DNA from: Pseudodesulfovibrio mercurii | GTDB lineage: Bacteria > Desulfobacterota > Desulfovibrionia > Desulfovibrionales > Desulfovibrionaceae | Assembly: GCF_000189295.2 (NCBI RefSeq) | Contig: NC_016803.1 | Coordinates: 2,760,001 to 2,792,000 of the forward strand | Direction: 5' to 3' | DNA: 32,000 bases | Shown: positions 1 to 11,944 of the stretch, one piece after another | How the letters are laid out: the number at the start of each line of letters is the position of its first letter | How positions within the stretch are numbered: the first letter of the stretch is position 1 | The notes under the pieces: generated by a model | What the model was told of the DNA's origin: nothing | The model's input: the letters and a program-made list of their open reading frames with translations, nothing else | Databases searched by the model: none | Made by a program: the position numbers and the translations under genes

Positions 1-456
1 CGCCTGAAAGGTCTGGGTCCCTCCGACGCGGCGGTAGCTGCCGTCCTGGAGGAACCGCAGCAGCCGGGGTTGCTGTGAAAGCGGCATTTCGCCGATTTCG
101 TCCAGGAAGAGGCAGCCGCCGTCCGCCGCCTTGACCAGGCCGTCCGTGGCCCTGTCGGCGCCGGTGTACGCCCCCTTGTCGTGCCCGAACAATTCGGAGG
201 AGAACAGGGCGTCGGTGAAGTCGGCGCAGTTGAGGCGGACGATGCGGCCGCCGTATCGGGACAGGCTCCGGATGTGGTCGGCCAGGAGCTCCTTGCCCGT
301 GCCCGACTCCCCGTGGATCAGGACGGGACGGTCGGACAGGGCCGCGACCTTGGCGAAGTCGCGGACCCGCTCCATGGCGGCGCATTCGCCGATCATCGCC
401 TTGACCGGGGACGGATTGCGGAAGAGCCTCGCCTCGTTGGTGCCGGTCCTGATCAT
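1..456 (-). CDS. sigma-54-dependent transcriptional activator (bEBP), N-terminal part only; the gene runs off the left edge
   Basis: Reverse-strand translation from the ATG at 456 (AGGAGG 9 nt upstream): MIRTGTNEARLFRNPSPVKAMIGECAAMERV...VLIHGESGTGKE (Walker A)...GHDKGAYTGA (GAFTGA-type sigma-54 contact loop)...GGCLFLDEIGEM (Walker B)...LLRFLQDGSYRRVGG. The AAA+ core starts about 20 aa after the start codon, so there is no receiver or sensor domain. It is missing from the supplied ORF track because it has no stop codon inside the window. Confidence 0.85.
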   Translation of the reverse strand, partial: MIRTGTNEARLFRNPSPVKAMIGECAAMERVRDFAKVAALSDRPVLIHGESGTGKELLADHIRSLSRYGGRIVRLNCADFTDALFSSELFGHDKGAYTGADRATDGLVKAADGGCLFLDEIGEMPLSQQPRLLRFLQDGSYRRVGGTQTFQA

Positions 457-714
457 GATGTCCCCCTCCTTGTCTGTTTCCGATCCATCGCGTGAGGGAC
501 CTCCCCTCACACCAGGGCCTTTTGGCGGCCAACGGAAACTCGCGTCGGTTTTGTCGGGAAAACAGGCGGGAGATATCAGGTGATTTACATAAATGGCTTG
601 ATATGTTCGCTGGTTGGGAGTTAACACAAGACAGTGTATTTTCGGGGACGGCAGCGTGTTCCGTTCCGGCCCGCCTGTCAGGCGCCATCGGACGGGGGTG
701 CGGGGACGGCCCGG

Positions 715-730
715 TGGCGAGGTTGTTGCA
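715..730 (+). promoter_or_regulatory. candidate sigma-54 (-24/-12) promoter
   Basis: TGGCGAGGTTGTTGCA has GG at 716-717 and GC at 728-729. That is exactly the spacing of the TGGCAC-N5-TTGCW consensus. It lies 61 nt upstream of the ATG at 791, in the 334-bp spacer shared with the divergent bEBP gene. Confidence 0.5.
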
Positions 731-11799: not shown

Positions 11800-11912
11800 G
11801 GCGGTGCCTCTGGGTGTGCTCTTCGTGGTGCGGTCAGGCGGCCGAAGTGGTCGAGTGCGGTCGGTCTTCAACGTGTATTCAATAAACGCATATTGCTCAA
11901 CCCCTTGAGGGT

Positions 11913-11944
11913 AAAAAAAGGCCGGACGGCATAGCCGCCCGGCC
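11913..11944 (-). terminator. rho-independent terminator downstream of tyrS
   Basis: On the minus strand: GGCCGGGCGGC-TAT-GCCGTCCGGCC (11-bp stem with one mismatch) followed by TTTTTTT. It starts 26 nt after the tyrS stop codon. Confidence 0.7.

Follow-up and report, generated by a model that had tools for sequence, protein, structure and literature searches.

A three-gene operon in the Pseudodesulfovibrio mercurii chromosome

We analysed a stretch of 32,000 nucleotides (nt) of the Pseudodesulfovibrio mercurii ND132 chromosome (NC_016803.1, positions 2,760,001 to 2,792,000), called the window throughout, and concentrate here on three closely packed genes near its left end, gA, gB and gC. The gC product, of 706 amino acids (aa), is 100% identical to DND132_2483, and gB is DND132_2482. 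All three genes lie on the plus strand and encode a sigma-like protein (gA, 791-2092, 433 aa), an anti-sigma-like protein (gB, 2118-3182, 354 aa) and a Lon-family protease (gC, 3189-5309). A Shine-Dalgarno (SD) sequence, GGAGAGGAAG, precedes gA at 777-786. To the left, a divergent intergenic region of 334 nt separates gA from the gene for a bacterial enhancer-binding protein (bEBP; 456..1, minus strand), of which the N-terminal 152 aa are encoded in the window and the rest lies outside it. To the right are gD (5546-6289, plus strand, 247 aa) and, convergent with it, a giant gene for a SecA-like/membrane protein of 1837 aa (11799..6286, minus strand).

A first-pass annotation of this DNA, made from the sequence alone, had described six elements packed into 12 kb, and all of them are present, with gene coordinates refined here from codon-position GC and the translations. 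The gaps that it gave between the three genes, 25 and 6 nt, are exact, and the helix-turn-helix (HTH) resembling sigma region 4 in gA, the zinc-binding anti-sigma (ZAS) motif in gB and the Lon-like and helical-repeat architecture of gC held up at family level; the uncharacterised 247-aa protein was recovered too. The sigma-54 activator lacking a sensor was also recovered, with the correction that its gene is divergent from the operon; the convergent giant gene does join SecA domains to a membrane domain, but starts at 11799 and not at 11944. As for the profile searches that it proposed for these proteins, the only domains for which Pfam, NCBIfam, PADLOC and PHROGs gave matches are the AAA+ domain of the bEBP and the SecA domains of the giant protein, while the Lon and region 4 domains were found with family profiles. 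gA, gB, gC and gD match nothing in these four databases, none of which holds a model of the cassette that the first three genes form.

Occurrence of the cassette and its linkage to type III CRISPR-Cas loci

Together, gA, gB and gC are apparently one conserved, previously unnamed protease/anti-sigma/sigma cassette, usually of type III CRISPR (clustered regularly interspaced short palindromic repeats)-Cas loci in Thermodesulfobacteriota. In a word-indexed database gC has only three distant relatives; a gB homologue lies directly upstream in each of these contigs, and one of them carries Cas6 and a CARF-type gene. Scans with patterns taken from the gC alignment gave 32 loci in GTDB, nearly all in metagenome-assembled genomes of Thermodesulfobacteriota, plus the cultured Desulfobulbus elongatus DSM 2908, and 80 loci in metagenomes. 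The cassette is common, being recovered in about 115 other loci, nearly all from Thermodesulfobacteriota and in both III-A and III-B systems. A scan of viral contigs found no relatives of gC. No description of the cassette was found in the searchable literature, which leaves out most subscription journals.

Neighbourhoods were compared by in-house calling of open reading frames (ORFs), blastp clustering and hidden Markov models (HMMs) of the clusters. The recurrent gene order is c6 (~150 aa), c2 (~360 aa), c1 (the gB family) and c0 (the gC family); next come an MJ1673-family gene, one of the Csx1-like CARF/HEPN kind and Cas6, and after them Cas10/Csm1 with Csm2-5 or, in other loci, Cmr2 with further Cmr genes (Pfam-confirmed). 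In most loci the gB homologue is directly upstream of the gC homologue. Among the 26 loci whose flanks both extend for 5 kb or more, 21 contain core type III cas genes (Cas6, Cas10, Csm/Cmr), and 23 contain either these or accessory genes of the cyclic oligoadenylate (cOA) type. All full-length Cas10 proteins of the cassette loci keep the GGDD motif. Directly downstream in L112, one of the three exceptions, lie genes for a fusion of CARF (Cas_NE0113) to adenosine deaminase, for a TPR protein and for an archaeo-eukaryotic primase (AEP) of a TOTE system (L112:12997-18719); this locus, which has no core cas genes, is a defence-island context.

The P. mercurii genes belong to the same families. 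The cluster HMMs match gA (c2) at 5.8e-13, gB (c1) at 2.7e-50 and gC at 7.6e-115, and gA aligns with the c2 family in hhalign (97.1%, E 4.8e-11) over 317 columns, whereas tblastn linked gA to nothing. Of all members the P. mercurii copy, with 21-31% identity to its relatives, is the most divergent. It also stands alone: only c0, c1 and c2 are present in the window, in which the cluster HMMs found no c6, MJ1673-family, Csx1-like, Cas6, Cas10 or Csm/Cmr genes, profiles of cas genes built from related loci gave no match, and no tandem repeats resembling a CRISPR array were detected.

Two further observations concern the make-up of the cassette. The c6 gene is the first cassette gene in most CRISPR-linked loci (for example L013:214-852, L016:6742-7197 and L037:4934-5410, with ~30 other loci); its product, of ~150 aa, carries the motifs HPxFVLR, CPCSS and NRYI and has no Pfam match. 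A variant cassette has c8 (ECF-sized, that is, like an extracytoplasmic function sigma factor, ~250 aa) and c9 (a shorter ZAS-type protein with HxHECxxC) in place of c2 and c1. It was found in five GTDB loci and in further metagenome loci (L007, L008, L011, L015, L023, L052, L074), and profile searches of the PDB with c8 and c9 gave no significant match.

The three cassette proteins

Judged by its sequence, gC is a Lon-family protease with a predicted Ser-Lys dyad and a 430-aa helical domain in place of SAVED. It consists of an N-terminal helical region, a Lon S16 peptidase domain at ~105-275 and a 430-aa all-helical repeat domain, residues 279-700 being predicted as all-helical. A profile of 50 sequences matches Lon proteolytic domains at E 1.7e-13 and, over the catalytic Ser-Lys stretch, CalpL (7qda/8b0r) at E 6.8e-4; the AlphaFold2 model (predicted local distance difference test, pLDDT, 69) superimposes on the P-domain of E. 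coli Lon with a template modelling score of 0.67 (Foldseek). Ser189 and Lys228 are invariant in 91/91 non-redundant relatives, and so are F435, G476, Q480, F484, G486 and P596 of the helical domain, where the motif GT[LI]AQxxxFCGP occupies 476-487 and a C-terminal FPFxYR is nearly invariant. Beyond the Lon domain no significant PDB profile match was found (best E 0.18), and Pfam and PADLOC detected no SAVED, CARF or CHAT domain in gC.

The gB protein appears anti-sigma-like and is a putative protease substrate. It has an N-terminal Cys/His cluster, a conserved beta-rich middle, an Ala-rich segment and a C-terminal beta domain. The ZAS-type C-x17-H-x3-C-x2-C arrangement (C20/H38/C42/C45, within HVETCGVC) is kept in 42-43 of 44 relatives, and a motif of the LPLAAA type occurs in ~38 of the 44; P. 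mercurii gB has EWAAARAAE aligned to this position. The C-terminal domain alone is common to gB and to c9 (hhalign 97.6%), which also precedes a Lon gene, and this fits that domain being recognised by the protease. Profiles of gB built from 4 and from 15 sequences gave no significant match in the PDB. In comparison with hand-entered MazF/Kid sequences, hhalign gave E 0.008 at a probability of 5%, with 0.32 for the reversed control. An AlphaFold2 model built from 5 sequences has a pLDDT of 39 and shows 4-5 low-confidence N-terminal helices; its Foldseek matches (ribosomal eL21 and others) are meaningless at this pLDDT and were discarded.

The gA protein is, from its profile matches, a divergent sigma-like protein and a member of family c2. 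Its HTH of the region 4 type lies at approximately residues 330-385, and the gA/c2 profile matches region 4 of the ECF sigma factor 9isn_F in the PDB at E 1.8e-5, as well as region 4 of SigF, SigD, FliA and SigH. For sigma region 2 there was no significant profile match and none in Pfam; only a sub-threshold stretch fell on region 2.1 of 9isn_F (score -0.2).

The promoter region and the divergent activator

The bEBP matches Sigma54_activat (PF00158) at E 5e-44, beginning at residue 21, and therefore has no N-terminal sensor; its NCBIfam matches are the AAA+ cores of NifA, RtcR, NorR and PspF. Its translation carries GAYTGA, a variant of the GAFTGA-type loop, and a strong SD sequence, AAGGAGG, stands ahead of its ATG at 456. 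It is a sensor-less, PspF-like sigma-54 enhancer-binding protein, resembling PspF-type activators in that the AAA+ domain starts ~20 residues in and that a divergent target promoter has a GG-N10-GC match. Unlike in those systems, no PspA-like partner was seen. Any C-terminal DNA-binding HTH would be encoded beyond position 1.

That match is the -24/-12 promoter candidate TGGCGAGGTTGTTGCA, at 715-730 on the plus strand, 60 nt before the gA ATG. A candidate of this kind had been listed in the first-pass annotation. Its occurrence is not statistically significant: the window has 2 occurrences of the stringent pattern TGGC-N7-TTGCW where 0.47 would be expected, and a count of 2 is reached in 10 of 100 shuffled sequences. 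The candidate is suggestive by position, not by statistics. An imperfect inverted repeat at 573..604 (15-nt arms, 80% complementary, from a repeat search), ~125 nt upstream of the -24 element, is a candidate upstream activating site for the bEBP, a function assigned by inference only. At the other end of the operon, a GC-rich hairpin followed by a T-rich tract (5372..5390, plus strand), 63 nt past the gC stop codon, is a possible end of the gA-gB-gC transcript; the evidence is weak, since just as many such sites in total are expected from shuffled sequence.

The P. mercurii cassette seems to be under a sigma-54 promoter that the neighbouring bEBP activates, its expression having been rewired. 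Upstream of 53 other cassettes no sigma-54 motif was found, and sigma-54 control is therefore not a trait of the family. A search for a shared promoter by k-mer enrichment returned only AT-rich or sigma-70-like words upstream of the cassettes. As no homologue of the bEBP was found in 117 related loci, its link with the cassette is unique to the P. mercurii genome.

gD and the giant SecA-like/membrane gene

Residues 56-817 of the giant protein match SecA_DEAD (PF07517, 7e-44), P-loop_SecA (PF21090, 3e-30) and SecA_SW (PF07516, 3.5e-14). The first 830 residues or so resemble SecA and SecA2 in having the DEAD motor, P-loop and wing/scaffold and in the motifs GEGKT, DEAD and GRGTDI, but here this motor is fused to ~13 hydrophobic, potentially transmembrane segments (residues ~910-1460, by hydropathy) and to a soluble C-terminal domain of ~370 aa (~1470-1837, encoded at 6289-7380). 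Its best NCBIfam score is 318 bits against the SecA cut-off of 862, and it is therefore SecA-like and not SecA; the scores against the SecA2 models, 234-273 bits, are also far below their cut-offs of 725-1100.

The giant protein is also extremely rare. An exhaustive HMMER search with residues 850-1837 against 1.84 billion representative proteins returned the protein itself and two fragments, and a word-index search with the C-terminal 1000 aa returned nothing; no relatives of the C-terminal domain were found in a scan of viral contigs. Both fragments are on metagenome contig L004 and are one gene, 45-47% identical to the P. mercurii protein and split by frameshifts. The best-conserved block of the C-terminal domain is GQLRNKMSHFS, of which LRNKMSHF is kept in this only homologue. 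The block has the form of the HEPN Rx4H RNase motif and may be taken as a lead; neither Pfam nor PDB profiles matched a HEPN fold in this domain.

gD has its own SD sequence and coding-type GC content at third codon positions (GC3), and tblastn and blastp found no homologue of it in the 117 related loci; hhalign gave no match between gD and either c6 or c2. Its membership in the module is not supported. The stop codons of gD and the giant gene overlap within CTAG at 6286-6289, and with no terminator between the two genes their transcripts must be antisense to each other at the 3' ends. On the far side of the giant gene lies the intrinsic terminator of tyrS (11918..11946, minus strand; a 13-bp stem with 10 GC pairs, then a T-run). 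This terminator is strong, so the giant gene must have its own promoter, in 11800-11917.

The first-pass annotation had proposed that a signalling cascade controls or cooperates with the SecA machine, and had named conserved synteny as the way to check this. Such synteny was not found: homologues of the giant gene, gD and the bEBP are absent from all 117 cassette loci, and in the 1.7 kb downstream of the L004 relative nothing resembles gA, gB, gC or gD. The sigma/anti-sigma/protease part of that proposal remains the best reading of the three genes, whereas the link to the SecA fusion is unsupported. The giant gene is an extremely rare neighbour and not part of the conserved cassette, and both it and gD are neighbours of the cassette without demonstrated connection. 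In one cassette locus, L012, a SecA gene (10048-12570) is convergent with the cassette, ~1.6 kb downstream; its product is a canonical housekeeping SecA of 840 aa with the C-terminal Zn finger CPCGSGKKYKKCCG, and we rejected it as conserved synteny and regard it as coincidence.

Comparison with known protease relays and anti-sigma factors

The CalpL-CalpT-CalpS (CalpLTS) system was reportedly described by Rouillon et al. in 2023. In this system, cyclic tetra-adenylate (cA4) is bound by the SAVED domain in CalpL, whose Lon domain then cuts CalpT (MazF-like plus DUF2080), and the ECF-like CalpS is freed (bioRxiv 10.1101/2024.05.08.593097; PMC11229360). CalpT is cleaved within LAAA, between LAA and the last A, and a degron is exposed (bioRxiv 10.1101/2024.05.08.593097). 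Like CalpLTS, the present cassette has three adjacent genes, in type III loci next to CARF effectors, for a Lon-family protease with a Ser-Lys dyad, a partner that is here putatively cleavable and a sigma-like protein. The protease cores of CalpL and gC are detectably related, as noted above, and the Ala-rich motif of the gB family resembles the CalpT site. However, gC lacks SAVED and has instead its helical domain, which has no known relative, and its Lon domain scores far higher on LonB/LonA than on CalpL. The gB protein has a ZAS-type Zn cluster not described for CalpT and no DUF2080 match, its likeness to MazF being unproven; gA/c2 is twice the size of an ECF sigma factor; the genes run sigma, anti-sigma, protease and not L-T-S; and the P. 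mercurii copy has no cas genes in the window, while the wider gC family does (21/26). Since SAVED, the domain that defines the CalpL family, was tested for and is absent, the cassette falls outside that family. On these sequence features it may be regarded as a functional analogue of CalpLTS, and at most as a very distant relative.

In type III-E systems, TPR-CHAT (Csx29) cuts Csx30 and so frees CASP-sigma, and the repeat domain of Csx29 docks the protease on the CRISPR effector (PMC10028731). Here too a helical-repeat protease, a cleaved inhibitor and a released sigma factor would be combined, and by analogy docking on a CRISPR effector is one plausible role for the helical domain of gC. The two differ in that Csx29 is a caspase-like CHAT Cys protease acting with Cas7-11, whereas gC is predicted to be a Lon protease and its family goes with multisubunit Csm and Cmr; no sequence relation between the Csx29 system and the cassette was found. 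The statement in the first-pass annotation that the locus matches no named system is therefore right for the proteins, which fall outside the CalpLTS and Csx29/Csx30/CASP-sigma families, but not for the logic, which matches both.

In having HxxxCxxC with an upstream Cys and an N-terminal helical region, and in being encoded right after a sigma-like gene, gB is like the ZAS anti-sigma factors RsrA, ChrR and RslA. It differs from them in matching no solved ZAS domain by profile, in being much larger, with the C-terminal module that it has in common with c9, and in its predicted trigger, which would be proteolysis and not redox.

Proposed function and alternative explanations

We think it probable, if well short of certain, that gA-gB-gC is a stand-alone copy of a conserved signalling cassette normally of type III CRISPR-Cas loci, rewired to sigma-54 in P. 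mercurii. According to the model suggested by the systems above, the Zn-binding, anti-sigma-like N-terminal domain of gB would hold the sigma-like gA inactive. A signal at the invariant helical C-terminal domain of gC, which in CRISPR loci could be a nucleotide made by Cas10 or contact with the Csm/Cmr complex, would switch on the Ser189/Lys228 protease. The protease may then cleave gB at or close to the Ala-rich LPLAAA stretch conserved in its family; the gB fragment would be degraded, and the freed gA would redirect RNA polymerase. A further suggestion, which concerns the cassette by itself, is that the helical domain of gC may belong to a new class of receivers for type III CRISPR signals; we judge this somewhat less likely than not.

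Several points weigh against this explanation. In gA, sigma region 2 was not detected by profile, and the Ala-rich motif is degenerate in P. mercurii gB. The anti-sigma assignment of gB has no PDB match behind it and, among 15 relatives, no Pfam match save one at zf-HC2 (E 0.023); its structural model is unusable at the pLDDT obtained, and a MazF-like middle domain is only weakly suggested. The linkage to CRISPR depends on neighbourhoods from crude in-house ORF calling and clustering, and the biochemical steps of the cascade are drawn from analogy and conserved features only. As to the rewiring, the sigma-54 motif does not stand out statistically, and none occurs upstream of the 53 other cassettes. 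Finally, the absence of cas genes covers the 32-kb window only, and P. mercurii has a CRISPR array of its own. Repeats ending in GGATTGAAAC are, we presume, typical of type I-C. The single reported array of ND132, at 3.49 Mb, has a repeat with this ending (PMC8146710 supplement), and the window lies, by locus-tag order, hundreds of kb from it.

The cassette might instead be an upstream switch of cas expression rather than a downstream Cas10 effector, regulating other local genes in P. mercurii. There is precedent in DdvS/DdvA of Myxococcus, and an ECF sigma/anti-sigma pair is reported to control a type III-B operon (PMC6061681). In many loci (L037, L013, L045, L048) the cassette is directly upstream of, and co-directional with, cas6-cas10-csm2-5, and gC has no recognisable nucleotide sensor. 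But in other loci the cassette is divergent from or downstream of the cas operons (L069, L073, L042, L051, L062), in L112 it sits beside cOA-dependent accessories without core cas genes, and no promoter motif is shared upstream of the cassettes. The dedicated protease with its invariant extra domain and the Ala-rich site also parallel the effector-type CalpLTS. We consider such a cas regulator rather unlikely. It is less likely still that the P. mercurii copy is a decaying remnant of a lost type III locus with no present function. The window lacks cas genes and all the accessory partners (c6, MJ1673-family, Csx1-like), and the copy's high divergence and degenerate Ala-rich motif would suit decay. 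The three ORFs are nevertheless intact, tightly spaced and strongly biased in codon-position GC; the copy keeps the catalytic Ser and Lys, all four Zn ligands and each motif that is invariant in the helical domain; and the new promoter and activator context suggests rewiring over decay.

One may also view the bEBP, the sigma-54 promoter, gA-gB-gC, gD and the giant gene as one dedicated system, whose cascade controls or cooperates with a translocation or effector machine. The genes are physically adjacent, the gD and giant transcripts must overlap at their shared CTAG, and the promoter region of the giant gene is insulated from tyrS by the strong terminator. The rarity of the giant gene is what one would expect of an accessory or defence gene, and its conserved RNxxxH is of the HEPN type. 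Against this, none of the 117 cassette loci has a homologue of the giant gene, gD or the bEBP, the 1.7 kb downstream of the giant gene's sole relative contain no cassette gene, PADLOC gave no matches, neither Pfam nor the PDB backs the HEPN idea, and the link rests on a single genome. We regard a single system of this kind as very improbable. Equally improbable, in our estimate, is a speculation that joins it to the CRISPR origin: a CRISPR-born cassette, cut loose and rewired to sigma-54 and the bEBP, would sense a signal through the helical domain of gC, gB would be cut, and the freed gA would drive gD and the giant gene, the SecA-membrane-HEPN-like product inserting itself into the membrane as an effector of abortive infection or in envelope stress.

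If the stand-alone CRISPR cassette is the true explanation, the family represents another protease-to-sigma relay of type III CRISPR, beside SAVED-Lon/CalpT/CalpS, TPR-CHAT/Csx30/CASP-sigma and a third protease relay, SAVED-CHAT/PCaspase. Since gC has neither SAVED nor CARF, a new nucleotide-sensing fold or a new coupling to Csm/Cmr complexes remains to be found. For mercury methylation ND132 serves as a genetically tractable model, and its stand-alone copy would offer a naturally occurring example of an ancillary CRISPR module exapted to respond to another input, in which the relay could be studied separately from CRISPR. The SecA-membrane fusion stands apart from this as a curiosity.

Other features of the window

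The DNA to the right of the giant gene is ordinary chromosome from tyrS (13259..11970, minus strand; Pfam) onwards, with coaX and genes for a chemoreceptor, cytochromes, a glycosyltransferase, UbiA and MscS (Pfam). There is no tRNA gene in the window, in agreement with the first-pass annotation, which had reported no flanking tRNA. Gene GC3 is 0.80-0.87 across 1-14500 as against 0.90-0.96 across 14500-32000. We considered this low-GC3 left block (1-14.5 kb) as a sign of an island and rejected it: the block takes in tyrS, and the low GC3 is therefore not evidence for an island.

Two ORFs in the window are well supported and belong to no Pfam family, namely 13588-14409 (minus strand, 273 aa, GC3 0.83) and 17971-19014 (plus strand, 347 aa, GC3 0.94), the latter preceding a gene for a multihaem cytochrome/cytochrome bd-like fusion. 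Further right, a tandem repeat of the CACGAC type at 28440-28524, with periods of 6, 15, 21 and 30, lies within the ORF 28120-28869; if the frame of this ORF is used, a His/Asp-rich run would result.

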